Shown piece after piece: positions 1,209-60,897 of a DNA stretch of 64,000 bases. Position 1 is the stretch's first letter. The number at the start of each line of letters is the position of its first letter. The DNA lies in the NCBI GenBank assembly GCA_001784435.1, contig MFQZ01000001.1, forward strand, positions 156,205-220,204, in the 5' to 3' direction. Source of the DNA: Candidatus Magasanikbacteria bacterium RIFOXYC2_FULL_42_28 (GTDB lineage: Bacteria; Patescibacteriota; Patescibacteriia; Magasanikbacterales; GWA2-37-8). Below the pieces are notes generated by a model, which searched no databases, was not told the origin of the DNA, and saw nothing but the letters and a program-made list of their open reading frames with translations. A program made the position numbers and the translations under genes.

Positions 1209-1283
1209 CACCTGAAAACTTTGGCAATGCTATACAAAAAAATAGCATTTTAACAATGCTATTATACCATAAAATTTAAAATA

Positions 1284-1301
1284 TGGGCAGTACAGGACTT
1301 G
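1284..1301 (-). repeat. 18-nt direct repeat of the 3' end of tRNA-Val (tgggcagtacaggacttg); att-like
   Basis: The same 18 nt occur at 1419-1436, which is the 3' end of the tRNA-Val gene on the minus strand. Confidence 0.6.
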
Positions 1302-1418
1302 GTCGCGACTAATTCCGCGTGGCGGAATTGTCTGACCATCGCCTCGTGTCCGCGCGAGCGGACATACTCCGGCGTTCAAGTCCTTAGCCGTAACCCAAAC
1401 TATTGGGTTACTCGTTTG

Positions 1419-1491
1419 TGGGCAGTACAGGACTTGAACCTGTGACATTTGCGATGTAAACGCAACGCTCTACCAACTGAGCTAACTGCCC
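1419..1491 (-). tRNA. tRNA-Val (anticodon TAC)
   Basis: Reverse complement gggcagttagctcagttggtagagcgttgcgtttacatcgcaaatgtcacaggttcaagtcctgtactgccca folds as a cloverleaf; anticodon loop tttacat. Confidence 0.85.
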
Positions 1492-1527
1492 TTAACGCGC
1501 TAATTATATTATAAATTCCGGCAAAAG

Positions 1528-2517
1528 TCAATCAGCGGGCGTGTTCTTATCCAAATTTTTAATATAATCCGGTATGTCGTTATTCCCCTGCCCCGCGAGC
1601 CAAGTCCACCATTCCGCTCCCCACAAATACGCGCGACTGACGCCGATTGCGCTGGCGTAATCAATATTTTTTTGTAAGCGCTCTAAATTCATGGACTTAT
1701 TTTGTTCTTCCAAACCAACGCTCGTAAAATTACCGGTCGGTATCCAGGGCTCGGCTTGTAATTCTGACACCATAAATTTATCCGCATTAACTCCGGTCAA
1801 AACCGTTTTCAAACGATAAAAACCGGCTGGCAACCAATCATAACTCCAATAGCCGGTTAGTTTGCTCCACACTACTCGATAAAGCGTGGTGCCAAACCAA
1901 TCCCCGGCTTTAGCGGTACGATGCCAGGTGGACAGTTCGCCGGAATCAGTTACTAACGTCGGCTTGCCGGTGGCGCGCGCCCGCTCAACTTCGTTGGCTA
2001 ATTGTTCGGCGGTCATTTTGCGACATTTTTCGCCAAAAGCCAAAAATGGCTCATTTTCTACTTGCCACATTTCTATGACCGAATTATTTTGATAACGTTC
2101 CAACACGATTTTAAGATAATTGTCCAGCGCCAAAGAATATTCCTGATCCGATAACCCGATCGCCCAGGCCGGCGCGTGACATTCGGGCCAACGTGGCGTT
2201 TTTTGCCCCATTGCCAAGATAACTTTCAAGTTATTTTTTTTTGCTTCATTTAAATAATAATCCAATTCCCCAAAATTATACTCATCCGAACTCGGCTCTA
2301 CCAAATCCCAATGCGCCGGCATTCGTAGATATTTGAAATTCCAATCTTTAATAATTTTATTAAAAACAATTTTATCGTCCAAACCCAAAAAACGCGCGTA
2401 AGTCGGGTCGAAAGAAACGCCAATGGTCATATTTTTGTTTGGTGTGATTGGCCAAAAAAATAAAACCAAATAAATTGCTAAAATTACGCCGAGGATAATA
2501 AATAATTTTTTGAGCAT
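1528..2517 (-). CDS. membrane-anchored glycoside hydrolase, clan GH-A (GH5/GH113-like TIM barrel)
   Basis: N-terminal TM helix, conserved QVENEP catalytic acid/base motif typical of clan GH-A, WPECHAPAW segment. Confidence 0.55.
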   Translation of the reverse strand: MLKKLFIILGVILAIYLVLFFWPITPNKNMTIGVSFDPTYARFLGLDDKIVFNKIIKDWNFKYLRMPAHWDLVEPSSDEYNFGELDYYLNEAKKNNLKVILAMGQKTPRWPECHAPAWAIGLSDQEYSLALDNYLKIVLERYQNNSVIEMWQVENEPFLAFGEKCRKMTAEQLANEVERARATGKPTLVTDSGELSTWHRTAKAGDWFGTTLYRVVWSKLTGYWSYDWLPAGFYRLKTVLTGVNADKFMVSELQAEPWIPTGNFTSVGLEEQNKSMNLERLQKNIDYASAIGVSRAYLWGAEWWTWLAGQGNNDIPDYIKNLDKNTPAD

Positions 2518-3710: not shown

Positions 3711-3739
3711 AAACCATCCCGACTAAGTCGGGATGGTTT
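3711..3739 (-). terminator. intrinsic terminator hairpin aaaccatcccgactaagtcgggatggttt
   Basis: Perfect stem-loop followed by a T-run on the minus strand; the same hairpin type recurs at 6045-6077 and 52765-52798. Confidence 0.6.
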
Positions 3740-3878
3740 CAAATTACTCCTCGGCTCTCTAAAATATTCAACTAATTAAATATTTTAGAGATCGGAGCCG
3801 AGGAGGGAAAGTGTGGCGGCTCGACGATCTCGCGGAAGGGCGAGAGGTGGCCGCTGGGTGGGAGTGGGGAAAGGGGGT

Positions 3879-4262
3879 CTAGTCGTGGTGCCAGCCACCC
3901 TCCTGGAGGAGGGAGTGCCCGCCCTTGGGGACAAAGGTCGGGGCGGGCTCGCCGAGCGACACGCGGGTCGTGGTGAAGCAAGCGCGGTCGCCGTCCTTGA
4001 CCTCTTCCACGCGCAGAACGTCGCCATCGCGGAGACCGAGCGGGACGAACCCGACGACCCCGCGAACCTTCTCGCCGCGCATCATCAGGCGGTACTGACC
4101 GCCATCTTGGGTCAGACGAACAATCATGGGGTGAGTGAAGCGCACGCTGTCACGATCCTTCCGATCGCAGCTCGTGGACTTCTGGTAAACGCACCCGTCG
4201 CGAAAGACGAACGTCTGCCCGGCCAAAAGATTCATACACACTCCAGATACTTGTTTGTCCAC
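3879..4262 (-). CDS. hypothetical small protein encoded in GC-rich island 1
   Basis: Only long ORF in the island that is preceded by a TATAAT -10 (plus 4400-4405) and followed by two tandem hairpins (3748-3806 large inverted repeat, 3711-3739). Composition is strongly GC-rich compared with the flanks. Confidence 0.4.
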   Translation of the reverse strand: MDKQVSGVCMNLLAGQTFVFRDGCVYQKSTSCDRKDRDSVRFTHPMIVRLTQDGGQYRLMMRGEKVRGVVGFVPLGLRDGDVLRVEEVKDGDRACFTTTRVSLGEPAPTFVPKGGHSLLQEGGWHHD

Positions 4263-4804
4263 GCTCCCCGCGCGGACTTCTTGTCAAACCTGACTCACAC
4301 CGGACACACTCCGGTATGGTGAGTCATCCTGCACATCTACAACGCCCAAAGCACTGTTATGCTCTCGGCGTTGTAGACGCACACTTGTAAAGAACTATCA
4401 TTATACCCTGCACCAGTCCGCACCATAGGCGGACGATGCAGGGCTAAACAAAACACCCCGCAACATTCGTCGCGGGGTGTGTGTAATTTTTATTTAACTT
4501 TACTTTGTAAAATTATTACACATTACCCCACGTCCAAACGGCAATACCAAAAAGGACAAGACCTTGATGGCCCAGCGTACGCGATTAATAATGTGTAAAT
4601 TATTTTTCATATATATTATATACTCTCATATCTGGAAAATATGTCAATAAAGTTATCCACAGGGCTTCGCCTTCGGCTACGCCCTGTAAACTTGGTTTAC
4701 CCGGCGTAGCGTAGCAAAGCCGGGCCATGTAAACTGGTGATAATATCTTTAAAATCAACTTCTTTGTCTAAATTATTTTGGCTAATTTTAGCCACTTTTA
4801 CCCC

Positions 4805-4882: not shown

Positions 4883-6046
4883 ATGAAAATCTTAATGATT
4901 GGACAAAAAGGCATACCAGCTCGCTACGGGGGCGTTGAACGCCACGTGGAAGAGTTGTCTTATGAATTGGCCAAACTCGGTCATGAAATTTTTGTATACG
5001 CGCGTTCTTGGTATACTCCCAAAAATATTAAAAATTATCGCGGTATCAATATTATCCATACCCCTTCTATCCACACCAAACATTTGGACGCGATTACTCA
5101 CACTTTAACTTCAACTCTTCACGCTTTGTTTCAAAAACCGGACGTGATTCATTATCATGGCGTGGGTCCGGCGTTATTGTCGTGGATCCCACGCTTGTTT
5201 TTGCCAAACACAAAAGTGGTGGCCACCTTTCATTGTATTGATCGTTACCACCAAAAGTGGAATTTCTTGGCGCGGTTTGCTTTGCGCGTGGGCGAATGGT
5301 TTACTTGCCATATTCCGCACGCGACTATTGCCGTGTCCGAGTCCTTGCGCAATTATTGTCTAAATGAACATCTTTGCCACACCCGTTATATCCCGAACGG
5401 CGCGCGCCCAATCGTGGACAAATCCAGTGAACTTTTAAATCAATTTGGTTTAAAACCGGAAAAATATCTTTTGATGGTGGCGCGTCTTGTCCGTCATAAA
5501 GGAGCGCAGTATTTAATTTCCGCTTGGAAAAATGCCCGCGCGTTAGAGTCAGAACTTTTGGCTGATTACAAATTGGCCATTGTCGGCGACAGTGTCTTCA
5601 CTGATGATTATGTCAAAGAATTACATACGCTGGCCAATAATTATAAAAGCATCATATTCGCCGGTTGGGTGGATGGAAAAAATTTAGAAGCGCTCTTCGC
5701 TAATACCGCTTTACTCGTGCACCCTTCGGAAAACGAAGGCTTGCCTCTCACCGTGCTGTCCGCGATGGCTGCCGGCCGACCGGTGTTGGTCTCGGATATT
5801 GCCGAACATCTGGAATTAATTAAAGATAAAAATTTCTTGTTCGCCAATACCAATATTGATGAATTAACCGAAAGAATAATCGCGCTCATCAAAGCGCCGG
5901 AGCTTCGACGCGAACAGGGCGCCAAAAATGCCGAACGCGCCCAAGCACATTACGACTGGGCCAAAATCGCCCGCCAAACGGAAAATATTTATTTGGCAAA
6001 AAGTCATGCCCTTGCACCCGCAAGAATCTCCACGGCAAGCAAATAA
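4883..6046 (+). CDS. glycosyltransferase family 4 (GT-B fold)
   Basis: C-terminal EX7E-type motif HPSENEGLPLTVLSAMAAGRPVLVSD; N-terminal GT4 core. Confidence 0.8.
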   Translation: MKILMIGQKGIPARYGGVERHVEELSYELAKLGHEIFVYARSWYTPKNIKNYRGINIIHTPSIHTKHLDAITHTLTSTLHALFQKPDVIHYHGVGPALLSWIPRLFLPNTKVVATFHCIDRYHQKWNFLARFALRVGEWFTCHIPHATIAVSESLRNYCLNEHLCHTRYIPNGARPIVDKSSELLNQFGLKPEKYLLMVARLVRHKGAQYLISAWKNARALESELLADYKLAIVGDSVFTDDYVKELHTLANNYKSIIFAGWVDGKNLEALFANTALLVHPSENEGLPLTVLSAMAAGRPVLVSDIAEHLELIKDKNFLFANTNIDELTERIIALIKAPELRREQGAKNAERAQAHYDWAKIARQTENIYLAKSHALAPARISTASK

Positions 6047-6077
6047 AAACCATCCCGACTTAGTCGGGATGGTTTTT
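6045..6077. terminator. bidirectional intrinsic terminator between convergent GT genes
   Basis: aaaaaccatcccgacttagtcgggatggttttt, with an A-run before and a T-run after. Confidence 0.7.
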
Positions 6078-7378: not shown

Positions 7379-8095
7379 TCACTTCGCCCCAACCGCCACC
7401 ATATTCCGCCCGCCCTTATCATCGGTCCAAGTGCCATTATTCATAAATTTAATTTTAATTTTTTTAAAACCGGCGCGCTTCATTAGGCCAACCAATTCTT
7501 CTTCGGTAAAATGGTGATAACAACGATCAACAATCTTTTCGCCTTGGGGATTTTTCCACGGAATTAAAAAATCATTGGGGGCGATTTCTTGCCAATTTTT
7601 ACTTTTTACTTTGGCCCAATCACTGCCTAAATTCCAAACCATTACGATCACTTTCGCGCCTGGTTTCATTTCATTGTAAAATTCTTGTAATTGCGCCAAA
7701 CGCGTTGCCTCGTCCGGTAAATGAAATAAAACCGCGATACAATAGACAATGTCAAAATAATCTTTAGGGAATTTTTTCGGCCGAGAGGCATTACTGAAAA
7801 ATTTTACTTTTTTTGTTTTAATTTCCGGCGCGAATCTTTGGCGCGCCAGTTTTAATAATTCCACGCTTTGATCTACCCCAAAATATTCAATCTTAAAATT
7901 TTTTAACATTGATAACAGCCGTCCATTGCCACAACCCCAATCCAAAACCTTATCGCCCACCTTCACATATTTTTTAAACCCCAAAAGTTCCGGCCAAAGC
8001 TCTTGACGCGTCGCCGAAAAATGTTTGGCAATGCGGTTGTAATCTTCCCGAGTTTTCGCTATAATATCCACAGTAGAATTTAGTTTAGTTGTCAT
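7379..8095 (-). CDS. class I SAM-dependent methyltransferase
   Basis: Motif I VLDWGCGNGR. Confidence 0.75.
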   Translation of the reverse strand: MTTKLNSTVDIIAKTREDYNRIAKHFSATRQELWPELLGFKKYVKVGDKVLDWGCGNGRLLSMLKNFKIEYFGVDQSVELLKLARQRFAPEIKTKKVKFFSNASRPKKFPKDYFDIVYCIAVLFHLPDEATRLAQLQEFYNEMKPGAKVIVMVWNLGSDWAKVKSKNWQEIAPNDFLIPWKNPQGEKIVDRCYHHFTEEELVGLMKRAGFKKIKIKFMNNGTWTDDKGGRNMVAVGAK

Positions 8096-8165
8096 TCCGA
8101 CGAAAGTCGGAATCTCTGTCGGTTGGTCAGTGGGCCAGAGATCCCGATTTTCATCGGGATGACAG
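8090..8165. repeat. family B structured element (tgtcattccgacGAAAgtcggaat...gatcccgattttcatcgggatgaca)
   Basis: Terminal inverted repeat TGTCATyCCGA / TCGGGATGACA with an internal GNRA hairpin; sits directly 5' of the Elp3 start. Confidence 0.6.
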
Positions 8166-12387: not shown

Positions 12388-12530
12388 TGTCATTCCGACG
12401 ACGAAGGAGGAATCTCTATCCCGTTGGCCATTGTAGACCGAATGGAGATCCCTCGTCGGATGCGAATCCTCGCTCGGGATGACAAAGAGGCAACGACGGA
12501 CAGAGATCCCGACTTTCGTCGGGATGACAA
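12388..12530. repeat. two tandem family B elements in the helicase 5' UTR
   Basis: tgtcattccgacgacgaaggaggaatctc...cgctcgggatgaca, then cagagatcccgactttcgtcgggatgaca. Confidence 0.55.
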
Positions 12531-38612: not shown

Positions 38613-38672
38613 AGTGGAGATATAGTAGCAGAAAAAAACAAAAAAAGCAAGTTTGCTTTTTTAATTAATTAG

Positions 38673-38746
38673 TGGGCAATTCAGGAATCGAACCTGAGAC
38701 CTCGTCATTATCAGTGACGCGCTCTAACCATCTGAGCTAATTGCCC
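38673..38746 (-). tRNA. tRNA-Ile (anticodon GAT)
   Basis: Reverse complement gggcaattagctcagatggttagagcgcgtcactgataatgacgaggtctcaggttcgattcctgaattgccca. Confidence 0.85.
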
Positions 38747-38762
38747 GTTTTAAATACCTTGG

Positions 38763-38836
38763 TGGGCGACACAGGAGTTGAACCTGTGACCTTTACAATG
38801 TCAATGTAACGCTCTAACCAACTGAGCTAGTCGCCC
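38763..38836 (-). tRNA. tRNA-Val (anticodon GAC)
   Basis: Reverse complement gggcgactagctcagttggttagagcgttacattgacattgtaaaggtcacaggttcaactcctgtgtcgccca; anticodon loop ttgacat. Confidence 0.8.
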
Positions 38837-39057
38837 ATAATTTACAAACACTATACCAAATTAAAAGAAAAAAATCAAGCCCCCCTAAACCAGATGCTTC
38901 GCATCGGTTCAGGGCTACGCCATAAAAACAAAAACACCCCCGATAACGAGGGTGCTTAACAACACAAACGTGACAAAAACCCTCGTCTATAACTCCTCCC
39001 CCGACTGAGTCGGGGTTCGACTGGATACCGTTCGGCTTTCGCCAAACGAGTTCTCCG

Positions 39058-40657
<1,600 letters not shown>

Positions 40658-41164
40658 AAAAAAAGTTCAATTAAGAACTATCAGAGAAGAGTGAAAAAAA
40701 TTCACTCTGCTAGATTTGAATCTCTTTTGACTGCTAAAGCCAAAAAGAGTTCTGGATTTATTCTGTATGTACGTCTTTCATTGTTTGTACTCAACAAACA
40801 ACTAAGACAATGTTTAGAGAAATAGATTTTGTGATTTTTGTCACGATTTGTATTGTCAACGAACACTGCTTCGCTACGCTACGCAGTGCAAGCATCTACT
40901 TGGACACGTTGCGCAGTGTAAACTTTCTTTCTTTTTACAGAAAGAAAAAAGAGGAACCAAAAATTTCAGTTACTCTTTTTTCTTTCCAGTATCCTATCTA
41001 CCTAACATTCCAAACAACAGCTTTTGGACTTAGAAGAAATCAATTGTTATAAAGTACTTGGTTGCCTTGATTTGTATTAAGCAAACGCAGTTTAACATAT
41101 TGTCAGAAACCTGTCAAGGGGTGGTTTGGGGTAAGGTGGGGATAAAAAAACCTTGATGTGTAGA

Positions 41165-47345: not shown

Positions 47346-47990
47346 TCACAGGCGAGGTTTTATTTTTTTGAAAGTTATCTGCTTTTTGATGGCTTGGCCG
47401 TTAATATTCAAATCAACTTTATCTTTTAACCAATACGAGACATAACCGGAACTAAATAAAATTACTTTTTTATTTTTCGCCCTTTTTAGATAATCGGTCA
47501 ATGAAGCGAAATCAGAGTCACTGGAAAATAAACAAAAAGTATCATAATTATCCGCCAACCGAATAGCGTCCACGCACATTTCCACGTCAAAATTACACTT
47601 CGGTAAATAAATATATTGGCCACGCGCGTCGCTGTTTCTTTCCCAACCAACTTTCACGTTTTCTCCGTCGGACAGATAGTGTTTTATTTTCTGAATCGGT
47701 TTAGTAACTGTCTTACTAAAAAATTTTCTCGCTTTAGCAATAATAGCGATTGATTTATTCTGCTTGGGGTCAAGTCCAAAATAAAAACGTGAGTGGACGG
47801 AAAATGTCTTAACATAAGTGGCCAACTGCTCTATGCCGATAACCAATTTTTCCCCCTTAAACAATTCCCGACCATTGCCGTCACGTTCGTCACGTTCATA
47901 CCAATAATTAACATTGCCAAAATCAATAAAAGTAAAAATTCGGCCATACTGCAACCAATCGCCAGGCAAATTTGATTTTGTGTTATCCAT
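47346..47990 (-). CDS. NYN/LabA-like (PIN-fold) nuclease domain protein
   Basis: IDFGNVNYW..., FDVEMCVDAIRLADNYDTFCLFSSDSDFASL..., KKVILFSSGYVS. Confidence 0.6.
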   Translation of the reverse strand: MDNTKSNLPGDWLQYGRIFTFIDFGNVNYWYERDERDGNGRELFKGEKLVIGIEQLATYVKTFSVHSRFYFGLDPKQNKSIAIIAKARKFFSKTVTKPIQKIKHYLSDGENVKVGWERNSDARGQYIYLPKCNFDVEMCVDAIRLADNYDTFCLFSSDSDFASLTDYLKRAKNKKVILFSSGYVSYWLKDKVDLNINGQAIKKQITFKKIKPRL

Positions 47991-48606
47991 TTTAATAAAT
48001 CGTTTGACTGGTGAATATTTAAAACTGTCGTATTATACCACAATCTAAAAATACTGGCAAAAATTCGCTTGAAGGACATTTTTCACATATCAACGAAATT
48101 ATTGCTGTGCATAGAGGACTATCTCGCCCTCAAAAACAAAAAGTTCTAAATACAATTTTCCTAGCGTCATCGATCGCCCCAACCAAAGGCAAACTTAGGC
48201 ATATTCTGTGAAATTAGGTACCCGTTTATGTACCTTATGCCGAAATATGCGTTGCGTCTTCCAGAACACCACCCGTTGAATACTCTTCGGGTTGAATAGA
48301 ATTTGAAGAAGTTATCTCCCTAACACCACGCACCGAGTATCTTCATTTTTAGTCACTTTATTTTTACTCTGCGACAAGCAGTAGCCGGTCACACTTTGAA
48401 AAATAAAATGGCGAGATTTTACACGCCCAAACCTTGGCCGGAGCGTTTTGGTAAAATCTAAATTTAGTATACCAAAATATTTATTAAAACAGAAGACCCC
48501 CGCTCGGACATCCACCTATTTAAGGGTGAACGCCGAGCGAGGGTCACGAGGGACCAAGTAGCCGAGCACTTGCCAAAAGAGCCAAGTGCCCGAGCGTCCA
48601 AGCCCC

Positions 48607-49191
48607 TTACTCGCGACAGGCGAACCGAGCGCCGCCGCGCCAGTCGCAGCCGAGCCAGCTGAAACGGAGCACCCAGCGGTCGCCGTGCCAGCGGAGGCAG
48701 GCCACGCGCCGGAGGCCGTCGGAATCGCACAGAACCGTGCCAGCGAGGGGGATGTAGAATCCCCGGAACTCGGCCGACAACTTGTCCTGCTCGGCCAGGA
48801 TCCGCTGGCCGTCGGCGAGGCCGAGATTGGCCCCCATGCTCACCGCGCGGCGACGCATCTCGTCGCCGGCGATGCCCGACTCCCCAGCCTTGAGGAAGGC
48901 GCGGGGACGGAGCGACGCCACGTCGAACTGCGACGCGACGACGTCCTCCACCACCGTCCAGTCGGTGGGGACGAGGCCGGTGGCGAGGGCCGGAGACTTC
49001 ACGCCGACGACCAGCGTCTTGACGCCGGCCCAGAACTCCTTGGAAGTAAGGACGTTCTGCACGTCCTCAATGTTGAACTCGAGCGACTTGAACAAGCCGC
49101 CCATCAACTTCGCAAATTCGCGAAGCTGGCCAGACGTGAACCGTTTCGCGGCCATCGTCTTGCTCCTTGCCATGCAGTTTGCCTTTGCCAA
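48607..49191 (-). CDS. hypothetical protein in GC-rich island 3 (Cys/Trp-rich C-terminus)
   Basis: Own promoter on the minus strand, TTGACA-18-TTATAT (plus about 49230-49259). Strongly GC-rich; the plus-strand ORF 48586..49251 is the alternative frame. Confidence 0.4.
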   Translation of the reverse strand: MAKANCMARSKTMAAKRFTSGQLREFAKLMGGLFKSLEFNIEDVQNVLTSKEFWAGVKTLVVGVKSPALATGLVPTDWTVVEDVVASQFDVASLRPRAFLKAGESGIAGDEMRRRAVSMGANLGLADGQRILAEQDKLSAEFRGFYIPLAGTVLCDSDGLRRVACLRWHGDRWVLRFSWLGCDWRGGARFACRE

Positions 49192-49314
49192 GCGATATGC
49201 TCGGTTGGGGTTTACCGCGAACTATGTGTATATAAGCATAAATTTAGGTAAATGTCAATATTAAAAAATAAAAACACCGCGCGAATATGGCGAAGCGTTT
49301 AAAAATGATTACCC

Positions 49315-50139
49315 TTAATTTTTAATTTTCAAAAAATTCTTGCCCGACACAATCGGCCGGCCAATCTTTCTTTCAATTTGTTTTCTGGTCGTCCCCGCGA
49401 TTTGCCCGCCCACCCGCGCGTCATCTTTTAATCTTGGCACACCCTTCGTATCTTTGGTGCGATGAATTTCGGTCGTGGTCCTTTCTCCCAACATCGTCAA
49501 AATCAATTCAAAATCATCCATGTGATCGCGCAAATTGTGTTTTTTTAACCCTTTTAATTTTTTATATTCCGCCGGCGTTACGCCAAAAGTCGCCTTAGAA
49601 ATTTCCGCTGTTAAAATTTCATAATCTTTTTCTTCTTGCGCCCCGCGCTTTTGCCATTCGTCGGTTAATTCTTCGCGCACGGCAATCCCACGCATCCTTT
49701 TTTCTATCCAATCTTCCGGATAGCCCTTTAATTTGTACAATAATTTTGTGCGCTTAGTCGCCAACTCCGGATTTTCAATTTCTTGGACGCGTTCGTAACC
49801 AACTTTGGCGAGCCAACGCTTAAACGGTTCGGCTTTGGGCGAGGGAATGGATTGGATAATACGAAAAATTCCTTCAGTATCAGCGCAGTCGGTTTCGTAC
49901 TTTTTACCATCACTGGCCTCTAATTTCAGTTGTAGACAAATTGTCGACAACTCAACTTTTTCCTCATCTTTAAGACGAATTTTCATTTTATACCAATAAT
50001 CGCGAGGATTAACACTGTCCGTTAATGCCTCAACAACATCAATAACCGAAAACCACCATTCTTTATTAAACAATGTTCTCCGTATCATTTTGCCCTTAAA
50101 CAAAGCAATACCATTATTTTGGCTTGAAATATCCCCCAT
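49315..50139 (-). CDS. BRO-N domain protein (DinD / phage antirepressor-like)
   Basis: N-terminal IALFKGKMIRRTLFNKEWWFSVIDVVEALT matches the BRO-N pattern; 274 aa; promoter ttgattgagtttttagattgtggtataat upstream. Confidence 0.5.
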   Translation of the reverse strand: MGDISSQNNGIALFKGKMIRRTLFNKEWWFSVIDVVEALTDSVNPRDYWYKMKIRLKDEEKVELSTICLQLKLEASDGKKYETDCADTEGIFRIIQSIPSPKAEPFKRWLAKVGYERVQEIENPELATKRTKLLYKLKGYPEDWIEKRMRGIAVREELTDEWQKRGAQEEKDYEILTAEISKATFGVTPAEYKKLKGLKKHNLRDHMDDFELILTMLGERTTTEIHRTKDTKGVPRLKDDARVGGQIAGTTRKQIERKIGRPIVSGKNFLKIKN

Positions 50140-57738: not shown

Positions 57739-57829
57739 CTATATATTAAAAATCCGTCCCGACTTAACCGGGACGGATTTTTGTTTCATCATTTTTGCCT
57801 TGTCCTGCGTAGCCAAAGGCGAAGCGGGA

Positions 57830-60773: not shown

Positions 60774-60813
60774 ATATTTATTGCTTATGCGTTCTTAAAC
60801 TATTGAGTCGTCG

Positions 60814-60897
60814 TGCGCGGGAGAGGACTCGAACCTCCATGCCCTTGCGAGCGTTACCACCTCAAGGTAGTGCGTCTACCAGTTTCGCCACCCGCGC
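60814..60897 (-). tRNA. tRNA-Leu (anticodon GAG), long variable arm
   Basis: Reverse complement gcgcgggtggcgaaactggtagacgcactaccttgaggtggtaacgctcgcaagggcatggaggttcgagtcctctcccgcgca; 7-bp acceptor stem, 3-bp D stem. Confidence 0.8.

Follow-up and report, generated by a model that had tools for sequence, protein, structure and literature searches.

Immediately downstream of the intact tRNA-Val(UAC) gene of Candidatus Magasanikbacteria bacterium RIFOXYC2_FULL_42_28 lies a 135-bp block that consists of a 117-nt spacer and a second copy of the last 18 nt of the tRNA gene. We tentatively interpret this block (probability about 0.42) as a non-coding scar in the DNA, left when the T-loop of the tRNA gene underwent an insertion or a repair event. 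We read it as an ORF-less version of a type of small insertion that is recurrent around CPR tRNA genes, a recurrence seen as architecture only, and today it is most likely immobile. All positions refer to the window, that is the whole stretch of 64,000 nucleotides that was analysed, and the elements of the locus are as follows.

1241–1263, minus strand: AT-rich hairpin of 9 bp, 2 of them G-C, with a U run behind it, predicted terminator
1261–1269, minus strand: extended -10 element TGgTATAAT of the SLT-domain gene, from reading the sequence
1284–1301, minus strand: distal 18-mer, displaced fragment of the tRNA 3′ end, from an exact repeat search
1302–1418, minus strand: non-coding spacer of 117 nt, 56% GC, folding z = -6.6 and -6.1, no Rfam match, no homologue found
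1302–1309, no strand: 8-nt palindrome GTCGCGAC, abutting the distal 18-mer on its 5′ side (tRNA sense), from reading the sequence
1311–1329, no strand: perfect hairpin 3, 8 bp with the 3-nt loop GTG, from a hairpin scan
1348–1363, no strand: perfect hairpin 2, 6 bp with the loop GCGA on the plus strand and UCGC on the tRNA strand, from sequence and folding
1372–1384, plus strand: inverted partial copy of the tRNA T-arm and 3′ end, 11 nt exact at 1374–1384 (GTTCAAGTCCT) and degenerate to about 1389
1390–1411, no strand: perfect hairpin 1, 9 bp with a 4-nt loop, 8 nt past the tRNA end, from a hairpin scan
1419–1436, minus strand: proximal 18-mer, comprising T-loop nucleotides 3–7, the 3′ strands of T-stem and acceptor stem, and the discriminator
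1419–1491, minus strand: intact tRNA-Val(UAC), anticodon TAC in DNA, no encoded CCA (Rfam RF00005, 74.5 bits; ARAGORN 1418–1491)
1503–1531, minus strand: putative promoter of the tRNA-Val transcript, TTGACT, 17-nt spacer and TATAAT, 11/12 consensus matches

The repeated segment reaches from the T-loop to the discriminator

The 18-nt duplication of the tRNA-Val 3′ end reported in the earlier note withstood a recount: TGGGCAGTACAGGACTTG forms an exact direct repeat, with copies at 1284–1301 and 1419–1436 separated by 117 nt and no further occurrence in the 64-kb window. An 18-nt match within ±600 nt of the tRNA has a chance expectation of about 1e-6. Both copies lie on the minus strand, and the distal one is a terminal 3′ fragment downstream of the gene. 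The proximal copy corresponds to tRNA-Val positions 56–73 (numbering counted by hand on the Rfam alignment) and runs from inside the T-loop (TT|CAAGT) to exactly the discriminator A, which places the junction at T-loop nucleotide 55/56; beyond the 18 nt the copies diverge at both ends. This register, together with the direct orientation and the downstream position, supports an insertion scar. The 135-bp block is present in all contigs of the same organism examined and is identical in three independent assemblies (ENA, JGI and Logan), which argues against an assembly artefact.

On the basis of these observations, we infer the following order of events. The inserted DNA would begin with its own copy of tRNA positions 56–73, so that the tRNA gene stays intact, and the original tRNA 3′ end would have been displaced 135 bp downstream. 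A locus without the block would thus be expected to read ACAGGTTCAAGTCCTGTACTGCCCATATTTTAAATTT. The initiating lesion may have been a break in the T-loop that was repaired by copying or recombination, and the agent is suggested by analogy with the endonuclease SegB of phages T4 and T6.

A GC-rich, hairpin-dense spacer

The spacer contains neither an ORF nor other coding potential. Its GC content of 56% compared with about 30% in the flanks makes it a GC-rich island in AT-rich intergenic DNA, and this foreign composition supports an insertion. Two of its hairpins have stems of at least 8 bp within 117 nt, whereas the window as a whole has such a hairpin about every 1.8 kb. All three perfect hairpins previously described are confirmed, the one at 1390–1411 with a preferred reading of 9 bp and a loop of 4 nt. 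The GNRA loop assigned to the hairpin at 1348–1363 exists on the plus strand (GCGA), antisense to the tRNA, but on the tRNA strand the loop is UCGC. Hairpin 1 resembles a terminator on the plus strand, where TCGTTTG follows, and lacks a U tail on the tRNA strand.

The block is predicted to fold at -63.1 kcal/mol (z = -6.6) into a three-way junction plus a hairpin. Folding is equally strong on both strands and uses Watson–Crick pairs only, with no G-U pairs, as expected of palindromes at the DNA level. Taken alone, the 73-nt tRNA-Val adopts the cloverleaf as its minimum free energy (MFE) structure (-28.0 kcal/mol), whereas the MFE structure of the whole 208 nt pairs the 5′ half of the tRNA with the distal copy and lies 4.8 kcal/mol below cloverleaf plus trailer. 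A search with the Rfam 15 covariance models at E up to 10 returned nothing in 1284–1418, the tRNA being the sole match.

The inverted 11-nt T-arm copy in the spacer does not appear in the earlier note. Its chance expectation is about 0.002 matches. Read on the tRNA strand, it could form 8 bp with the distal 18-mer or 11 bp with the T-arm of the tRNA itself.

Transcription of the block and the downstream gene

The putative tRNA promoter is found likewise in the nearest relative, locus L001, where it follows the stop of the glycoside hydrolase (GH) gene. Probably, the block is transcribed from this promoter as a 3′ trailer, cut off at 3′ maturation and terminated at 1241–1263; removal of the trailer in 3′ maturation is proposed for a gene that encodes no CCA. 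The hairpin and U run at 1241–1263 likely end read-through from the tRNA promoter. This hairpin is absent from the terminator consensus scan because the scan needs at least 3 G-C pairs. It overlaps the -10 element of the SLT-domain gene, which starts at 1208 and encodes 657 aa (PF01464, E = 5e-17). As previously proposed, the distal repeat overlaps the -35 region of this gene (TGCCCA at 1284–1289, 17-nt spacer, 3/6 matches); the -10 element, however, is located at 1261–1269 and not at 1262–1270.

The post-tRNA interval is hypervariable in relatives

In the search for an empty site, identical neighbouring proteins led only to identical contigs, and the nearest relatives beyond these, at 65% amino-acid identity in the adjacent GH gene, are too distant to show one. 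Among relatives, the order EamA, GH, tRNA-Val(UAC) and permease is conserved, and the interval after the tRNA is hypervariable (the L170 contig stops before the tRNA). No homologue of the 657-aa SLT gene was found in 54 related loci. A joint arrival of the SLT gene and the block was considered and rejected: the few homologues elsewhere (at most 45% identity) are accompanied by neither a tRNA nor similar upstream sequence.

A common theme emerges from related Magasanikbacteria and other CPR, in which terminal tRNA fragments and perfect GC hairpins occur 40–200 nt from an intact tRNA gene. In L001, a 20-nt copy of the tRNA 5′ end and a hairpin block of 61 nt are located 191 nt upstream of the intact tRNA gene, after which comes a plain terminator. 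L024 has a 17-nt fragment that starts at T-loop nucleotide 58, with a spacer of 95 nt. In L131, a locus that itself looks CPR-like, fragments of 41 and 18 nt start in the anticodon loop and the T-loop, with spacers of 74 and 43 nt, and a GC hairpin lies immediately 5′ of the T-loop fragment. The 61-nt hairpin block is common to L001 and L179, which differ in genome and tRNA, and shows compensatory changes in its stem. The hypervariable interval and the recurrence of this theme support an insertion scar.

Several of these CPR loci carry genes for GIY-YIG endonucleases of about 85 aa. GIY-YIG ORFs are present in L003 and L019, where they accompany arrays of terminal tRNA fragments, and in L179–L186; in L180 a 23S_rRNA_IVP gene adjoins the GIY-YIG/tRNA-Thr locus. 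All of the GIY-YIG homologues fetched independently lie within partial tRNA copies, of tRNA-Thr or of tRNA-Gln. Where the tRNA is tRNA-Thr, the anticodon-stem 3′ strand (AAGGAGG) precedes the endonuclease ATG by 2–8 nt. The proteins measure 79–98 aa and comprise the catalytic domain only, and cleavage of tRNA genes by them is putative. Short partial tRNA copies with GC hairpins, often GIY-YIG-linked in the relatives, suggest an agent other than an integrase. The position of the homologues within partial tRNA copies and the SegB precedent support an agent of the GIY-YIG type.

Short-range fragments were detected at 4 of 23 tRNAs in related loci, and the 246 tRNAs of unrelated metagenome loci supplied a single comparable case (L131) plus five unexamined tRNA-Asp copies; these frequencies are rough, because the search used exact matches of at least 13 nt and the loci were picked via one gene. 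The architecture of the relatives' units is heterogeneous, and no common fold was found among them. The spacer shares no sequence with the relatives' hairpin blocks, so that the link is one of architecture, not homology. A motif scan detected no GIY-YIG gene in the block or in the 64-kb window; this result, the missing homology between the spacer and the relatives, the heterogeneity of the units and the restriction of the CPR proteins to a catalytic domain count against the explanation as a scar.

Searches for further copies and for a parent element

Neither blastn-short nor nhmmer revealed further copies of the spacer in the 64-kb window and the fetched loci, and additional copies of a REP- or MITE-like repeat family were likewise not found there. 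A covariance model of the 135-nt unit yielded no accepted homologue in 63 sources, including the 54 related loci. Its sole match, L170 3179–3293 (17 bits), was rejected, as it lies inside a GC-rich ORF and has many broken pairs. Derivation of the spacer from a decayed tandem tRNA copy was also dismissed, as its alignment to the 5′ part of the tRNA scores below the shuffle mean; the hairpin-stripped unit and the tRNA are 26% identical (by hand).

Scans of IMG/VR recovered the 18-mer only in five unrelated att/tRNA contexts and gave no match to hairpin 3, and BLAST of 1270–1430 against phages and plasmids gave no match. These sources yielded no cognate autonomous element or attP that a CIME-like reading could draw on. 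Scanning metagenome contigs with the 28-mer of the tRNA 3′ end gave 111 loci, nearly all of them unrelated tRNA-Val genes and none from this organism; L131 was the one informative locus among them. At 47–50 kb the window encodes an NYN-domain protein and a Bro-N protein.

Alternative origins of the block

A tyrosine integrase might have produced the same geometry, although we regard this as rather unlikely. The block would then be a classical att remnant, with crossover in the T-loop and positions 56–73 supplied by attP, of which an internal deletion left 117 bp of ends, or else a miniature, cis-mobilisable derivative. The Islander geometry is indeed present: a terminal 3′ fragment lies downstream of the gene in direct orientation, and the sublocation is the T-loop. 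The locus also differs from one relative to another, and hairpin 1 looks like a plus-strand terminator, as though a gene once convergent on the tRNA had ended there. However, there is no integrase in the block, and a crude motif scan and a Pfam search of ten unannotated ORFs detected no tyrosine recombinase in the 64-kb window. No integrase was noticed among the ORFs listed for the related loci with fragments. Moreover, spacers are at most 200 nt in five independent lineages, lengths that random decay of kilobase-sized elements would not leave; GTCGCGAC, to the left of the identity block, does not mimic the 5′ strand of the T-stem as a core-type site should; and no IMG/VR contig holds the 18-mer in a matching context. 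To our knowledge, any known integrative element is far longer than 135 bp. An integrase or CIME origin would predict GCGAC-CAAGTCCTGTACTGCCCA-CAAACGAG (AGTCGCGACCAAGTCCTGTACTGCCCACAAACGAGTAACC) as the junction of the excised circle. The integrase-type insertion proposed in the earlier note is supported in its geometry (3′ fragment, T-loop start, discriminator end) and unsupported in its integrase part, given that these scans detected no recombinase in the window, that no attP-bearing virus was found and that the length is 135 bp. A local replication or repair error could dispense with a mobile element altogether: if synthesis switched template or folded back at the T-arm palindrome, the outcome would be a direct duplication of 18 nt together with an inverted copy of the T-arm and fresh perfect palindromes. 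The inverted partial copy of the same tRNA end in the spacer and the perfect hairpins with loops of 3–4 nt, as from snap-back synthesis, fit this origin. Yet most of the 117 nt have no nearby template, a random slip has no reason to stop at the exact tRNA 3′ end where the repeat terminates, and recurrence across lineages and tRNAs favours a directed process, and we judge such an error to be quite improbable.

Two further explanations place the meaning of the block at the RNA level. A functional or exapted structured RNA, either a 3′ trailer or an sRNA whose closing helix is formed with the tRNA-like 3′ strand, is improbable in our view; it could insulate or terminate the tRNA transcript before the SLT promoter, block 3′ exonucleases or compete for the T-arm. 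The very stable fold, the GC-rich island, the inverted 11-mer able to pair with either 18-mer copy, the use of the distal copy in the 208-nt MFE structure and the position of the block between a promoter and a terminator-like hairpin are in line with such a role. But the opposite strand is equally stable and no G-U pairs mark a strand, there is neither an Rfam match nor a homologue in the 63 sources, and the nearest relative manages with a plain terminator after its tRNA. As no spacer homologue was found, there is no covariation to draw on, and the small-structured-RNA alternative of the earlier note is neither supported nor excluded. A T-loop intervening sequence, in which the distal copy provides the functional 3′ end and 135 nt are excised or tolerated, is very improbable. 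It could appeal to the MFE structure of the full transcript, which uses the distal copy, and to CPR rRNA genes with many short (<200 bp) ORF-less insertions at stem-loop tips (PMC11270868); against it, a complete, high-scoring tRNA is encoded unspliced and transcribed first, no Rfam family, not even the group I introns, matched the region at E up to 10, and the 18-nt duplication is left without a reason.

Comparison with known systems

Recognised crossover sublocations in tDNA are the anticodon loop, the T-loop and the T/acceptor junction, and Islander filters elements for lengths of 2–200 kb (PMC4383910). tDNA islands and prophages (Islander; Williams 2002, Hudson et al. 2015) resemble the present locus in the intact tRNA with a displaced 3′ fragment, direct and downstream, in the identity block from the T-loop to the tRNA 3′ end, and in the variability of the locus. 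They differ in size (2–200 kb versus 135 bp), and the block has neither integrase nor cargo nor a cognate attP that could be found; the sequence to the left of its core also lacks dyad symmetry with the T-stem. Cis-mobilisable elements (CIMEs) and other ORF-less derivatives of integrative elements share with the block the attL- and attR-like repeats around DNA without recombination genes. Known CIMEs, such as those of Streptococcus thermophilus, are kilobases long and have att sites in common with an identifiable ICE, whereas for the block neither partner element nor integrase is known.

SegB is a free-standing GIY-YIG homing endonuclease of T4 and T6, encoded in the phage tRNA gene cluster (PMC2330249, PMC13096335). 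It cleaves tRNA genes, recognising them by the T-psi-C motif (PMC2330249), and it drives recombination-dependent segmental amplification of tRNA segments (PMC13096335). Its T-psi-C stem-loop target corresponds to the T-loop junction of the block, which has 18-nt direct and 11-nt inverted tRNA copies, and CPR relatives bear GIY-YIG genes inside arrays of partial tRNAs. In contrast, no GIY-YIG gene is near the block, SegB amplicons are tandem copies of existing sequence and not new hairpin-rich DNA, and the CPR proteins consist of the catalytic domain only. SegB is longer than these proteins and has a DNA-binding part.

Insertions of <200 bp in CPR rRNA genes provide a parallel from the same bacterial group. 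These are ORF-less, are not introns and sit at the tips or bases of stem-loops, and some CPR rRNA-gene insertions carry GIY-YIG and 23S_rRNA_IVP genes (PMC11270868). Like the block, they are short, ORF-less and associated with a structural RNA gene, but they interrupt the mature RNA, whereas here a complete tRNA is regenerated by the 18-nt duplication.

Implications for CPR tRNA genes

A wider interpretation, which we hold to be doubtful though possible, assigns the block to an undescribed class of small elements in and around CPR/Patescibacteria tRNA genes, namely hairpin-substituted pseudo-tRNA modules, of which it would be a non-autonomous or fossil member. In such modules the native arms would be replaced by perfect GC hairpins and the terminal segment would be identical to the adjacent intact tRNA, and autonomous forms would carry a gene for the minimal GIY-YIG endonuclease of ~85 aa. 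For tRNA-Thr, the hairpin substitution would free AAGGAGG, which could act as the Shine–Dalgarno sequence of the endonuclease.

By itself, the block is a small scar without obvious effect, since the tRNA is intact and the SLT gene has its own promoter. For annotation pipelines it calls for caution, in that a tDNA fragment at a distance of just about 100 bp from its gene does not amount to an island. Its value is that of a pointer: very short hairpin-rich insertions, some with minimal GIY-YIG nucleases, seem to have colonised the tRNA genes of the ultra-small CPR bacteria as well as their rRNA genes. If this is true, cellular genomes would join the T-even phages (SegB) in showing homing targeted to tRNA genes, some of the unusual structure between CPR genes would have an explanation, and biochemical tests could turn to a compact family of nucleases specific for tRNA genes.

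Duplication of the tRNA-Val 3′ end

The 18-mer TGGGCAGTACAGGACTTG is present in two exact copies in the window, at 1284-1301 and 1419-1436, which lie in direct orientation and 117 nt apart. The copy at 1419-1436 is the 3′ end of the minus-strand gene for tRNA-Val(TAC) (1418-1491 by ARAGORN; 1419-1491 by Rfam, 74.5 bits), which lacks an encoded CCA. Rfam alignment assigns the 18-mer to tRNA positions 56-73, comprising the final 5 nt of the T-loop, the 3′ strands of the T-stem and acceptor stem, and the discriminator A; the repeat identity is bounded precisely by the discriminator at one end and breaks off within the T-loop at the other. An exact 18-mer match within 600 nt of this tRNA has a chance expectation of about 1e-6. 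The block, consisting of the spacer 1302-1418 and the distal 18-mer (135 nt), is identical in three independent assemblies (ENA, L055; JGI, L056; Logan, L187) and is thus real. With minor corrections, the duplication described in an earlier note is confirmed.

Structure and predicted transcription of the block

The spacer has a GC content of 56%, compared with about 24-31% in the flanking intergenic DNA, and contains two hairpins with stems of at least 8 bp within 117 nt, as opposed to roughly one per 1.8 kb window-wide. All three perfect hairpins reported previously are present, but the GNRA loop assigned to one of them is confined to the antisense (plus) orientation and does not exist on the tRNA strand. 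The inverted T-arm copy and the palindrome among the following features had been overlooked.

1311-1329: perfect hairpin, 8 bp
1348-1363: perfect hairpin, 6 bp
1390-1411: perfect hairpin, 9 bp
1374-1384, plus strand: inverted exact 11-nt copy of the T-arm, GTTCAAGTCCT
Adjoining the distal 18-mer: palindrome GTCGCGAC
1531-1503: putative near-consensus promoter, TTGACT-17-TATAAT, just 5′ of tRNA-Val
1263-1241: AT-rich 9-bp hairpin and U run, the first terminator-like structure after the tRNA

The inverted copy continues in degenerate form across the acceptor strand. In the predicted fold of the 135-nt unit on the tRNA strand, a hairpin plus a three-way junction (-63.1 kcal/mol, z = -6.6), it pairs with the distal 18-mer to form the closing helix. 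As every stem is Watson-Crick, folding of the opposite strand is equally favourable (-62.8 kcal/mol, z = -6.1). When the whole 208 nt are folded, the tRNA 5′ half pairs with the distal copy (-95.9 kcal/mol, versus -91.1 kcal/mol for the alternative of cloverleaf and trailer).

The same promoter follows the glycoside hydrolase (GH) gene in L001, a locus from a related genome. As no U-tailed terminator was found 3′ of the tRNA on its strand, and the first terminator-like hairpin is located at 1263-1241, the tRNA transcript probably carries the block as its 3′ trailer. This hairpin overlaps the extended -10 element TGgTATAAT (1269-1261) of the downstream SLT-domain gene (PF01464, E = 5e-17); the element had been recognized before, but its position is 1261-1269, one base from that reported. 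The SLT leader (1220-1263) can form either of two AT-rich hairpins, 1241-1263 or 1226-1249, that use the same arm, AATGCTAT, and are followed by a U run. It is predicted that read-through from the tRNA promoter could terminate in these hairpins, and that the -10-overlapping hairpin 1241-1263 could not arise in transcripts started at the SLT promoter.

Searches with the spacer by blastn-short and nhmmer against the window and all loci collected by then returned self matches only, and BLAST of the region against phage and plasmid collections gave no match. Pattern scans of IMG/VR located the 18-mer in five tRNA or att contexts, all unrelated, and hairpin 3 (1311-1329) nowhere. A search of 63 sources, 54 of them related loci, with a covariance model of the unit yielded a single match of 17 bits, which was rejected as it lies within a GC-rich ORF. 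Aligned with the tRNA, the spacer did not prove to be a degenerate version of its 5′ part.

Variability of the locus in related genomes

The window belongs to a Candidatus Magasanikbacteria organism from Rifle groundwater, whose nearest other genomes (L001 and L170) share 65% amino-acid identity in the adjacent GH. Magasanikbacteria conserve the order EamA, GH, tRNA-Val(UAC) and Trp/Tyr-type permease, and the interval 3′ of tRNA-Val is hypervariable. The permease directly follows tRNA-Val in L002, L004, L005, L019 and L024, is separated from it by other genes in L016 and L017, and is absent within about 3.6 kb downstream in L001, L003, L007, L010 and L014. In the window, the stretch from the distal 18-mer to the permease contains a 657-aa SLT gene; none of the 54 related loci has a homologue, and the few relatives of this gene (at most 45% identity) occur in unrelated contexts adjoining GIY-YIG, ORF6N or HEPN/NTP-transferase genes.

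Short-range partial tRNA copies are frequent in related genomes, both at tRNA-Val and at other tRNA genes. Behind the shared promoter, L001 carries the first 20 nt of tRNA-Val with a 61-nt perfect-hairpin block in the D-loop, then a few further tRNA nucleotides, AT-rich DNA and the intact gene; it mirrors the window, but here the insertion measures 191 nt and the flanking repeat is 20 nt of the tRNA 5′ end. In L024, a 95-nt spacer precedes a 17-nt fragment beginning at T-loop nucleotide 58, and L004 has a diverged 3′ pseudo-copy about 80 nt downstream. At the tRNA-Ile of L131, 74 nt are followed by a 41-nt fragment spanning the anticodon loop to the 3′ end and, 43 nt beyond, by one of 18 nt that begins in the T-loop and likewise reaches the 3′ end; a GC hairpin immediately precedes this second fragment, as in the window. 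The original tRNA-Val of L003 is split by an interval in which hairpins occur together with a new tRNA-Val that is intact and with tandemly repeated units, each a tRNA 3′ part plus a GIY-YIG ORF. L019 (tRNA-Thr) has the order pseudo-5′ copy, GIY-YIG ORF, intact gene and a tandem pair of pseudo-tRNA units with CCCCGC-N4-GCGGGG hairpins in place of arms. When exact matches of at least 13 nt within 600 nt of a tRNA are counted, such fragments accompany 4/23 tRNAs in related loci, a small, non-independent sample biased to exact matches. Among 246 tRNAs of unrelated metagenome loci there was one comparable case, the CPR-like L131, as well as five long candidate copies of tRNA-Asp.

The 61-nt block of L001 (5052-5111), CCCGATTTCRACTTCGGTYGAAATCGAGGATCCTCGATTTTG..CAAAATCGGGA with three perfect hairpins, recurs in L179 (1367-1426), a different organism. 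It is inserted in the D-loop of a pseudo tRNA-Val in L001 and after position 8 of a pseudo tRNA-Thr in L179, and its stems show compensatory changes (CGAC/GTCG versus CAAC/GTTG; TGC..GCA versus TGT..ACA). Such a block could represent a structured module that is small and mobile. Runs of N interrupt the partial-tRNA arrays of L001 (30 at 5125-5154) and L003 (100 at 5347-5446); with the same sequence flanking both sides of each run, they look like assembly gaps due to tandem repeats, and the true number of copies there may differ from that assembled.

GIY-YIG genes in partial-tRNA arrays

The ORFs of L003 and L019 encode GIY-YIG catalytic domains (PF01541, E = 7.5e-16 and 5.3e-20). Independently collected homologues of the L019 protein all have the same partial-tRNA setting. 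Together with those of L003 and L019, these small GIY-YIG genes (79-98 aa) lie inside arrays of partial copies beside intact tRNA-Thr(GGT), tRNA-Gln(CTG) or tRNA-Val(TAC).

Upstream of tRNA-Thr(GGT): GIY-YIG ORF in L179, L180/L181 and L182
Upstream of tRNA-Gln(CTG): GIY-YIG ORF in L183-L186
GIY-YIG/partial-tRNA arrays: L019 100-780; L179 1340-1830; L180 540-1060; L182 1380-1931; L183 1380-1840; L003 5000-5890

The 5′ module of the tRNA-Thr-linked ORFs consists of tRNA positions 1-21, a CCCCGC-N4-GCGGGG hairpin, and the anticodon loop with the anticodon-stem 3′ strand (CATGGTAAGGAGG), the ATG following 2-8 nt further on. The freed AAGGAGG of the anticodon stem looks like a Shine-Dalgarno sequence and is the putative ribosome-binding site of the ORF. 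In L019, L179 and L182 the stop codon overlaps the 5′ end of the intact tRNA.

Other features of the window

The EamA and GT4 genes flank an island of about 550 bp (3772-4322) in which GC rises to 68-71%, against 44% for the genome; it matches no Rfam family. The 127-aa product of its minus-strand ORF 3879-4262 matches no Pfam family but shares 31% identity (pairwise E = 2e-6) with that of a 95-aa, GC-rich ORF in the syntenic position of L170. Hairpins of the type (A)TCCCGAC-loop-GTCGGGA(T) recur at 3711-3739, 6045-6077, 8141-8160, 12506-12525 and 57748-57782, and also at 8094-8113; several have A and T runs alongside, like bidirectional terminators, and the stem motif is also found in hairpins inserted into pseudo-tRNAs of L001 and L003. 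An 85-nt class II tRNA at 60813-60897 (ARAGORN 'tRNA-???' with a 2-base anticodon; Rfam tRNA, 47 bits) reads in another register as a candidate tRNA-Leu(GAG) with a 4-bp anticodon stem plus C-A mismatch and the loop UUGAGGU. In the region 38672-40663, the genes for tRNA-Val(GAC) and tRNA-Ile(GAT), and then protein genes, come after the minus-strand 16S rRNA gene (39059-40663); as the whole window lacks a 23S rRNA gene, the rRNA genes of this genome appear unlinked. A mobile-element-like cluster (47346-50139) comprises an NYN-domain protein (47346-47990), an unannotated 188-aa ORF and a Bro-N domain protein (49315-50139).

Origin of the block

Integration into tRNA genes leaves regenerated tDNA and, oriented alike, a displaced piece of its terminus, the crossover having taken place in the T-loop, the anticodon loop or the T/acceptor junction; the Islander filters require an integrase inside an element of 2-200 kb (PMC4383910). 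The T-loop-to-discriminator register, direct orientation and downstream position support the core idea of the earlier note, an insertion into the tRNA gene, and such a register is hard to explain without a DNA-inserting process that must preserve that gene. In contrast to a classical island, however, the block lacks two defining features, recombinase and size: it is too small, and neither a tyrosine-recombinase motif scan of the window nor a Pfam scan of ten unannotated ORFs revealed an integrase. The earlier interpretation is thus partly supported. As an integrase remnant or miniature element is moreover at a loss to explain spacers of at most 200 nt in five lineages and perfect hairpins adjoining the fragments, we regard it as unlikely. 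A functional or exapted structured RNA seems improbable; the unit folds stably, but no folding feature marks either strand as functional RNA, and an Rfam search of the region with E up to 10 matched the tRNA only. We give similarly little weight to template switching, by which the duplication would have arisen without any element, and hardly any to an intervening sequence of the T-loop.

A homing or repair-type origin of the block is the better guess, held tentatively at a probability of about 0.42, because of the pattern in relatives and the SegB precedent for T-loop cleavage and duplication. T4 SegB is a GIY-YIG homing endonuclease encoded in the phage tRNA cluster, and its recognition site includes the conserved T-psi-C stem-loop motif (PMC2330249). 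T6 SegB cuts within tRNA genes, causing tRNA segments to be amplified in a recombination-dependent way, and there is an enrichment of segB genes beside tRNAs (PMC13096335). Furthermore, CPR rRNA genes harbour many ORF-less, non-intron insertions of less than 200 bp at stem-loop tips, and some insertions carry GIY-YIG genes (PMC11270868). The block would accordingly represent an ORF-less relic of a homing or repair event that today may be merely a transcribed trailer. A motif scan detected no GIY-YIG gene in the window, and the proposed tie to GIY-YIG elements, whose nuclease activity is predicted, is one of common architecture without sequence homology.

A full-text literature search retrieved no papers linking GIY-YIG genes with tRNA genes in CPR bacteria, and no description of the GIY-YIG/hairpin-substituted partial-tRNA arrangement was found in the literature searched. 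The block itself is most likely a tDNA-fragment scar, and it points to a wider pattern in CPR genomes, that of small hairpin-substituted pseudo-tRNA modules with minimal GIY-YIG genes.
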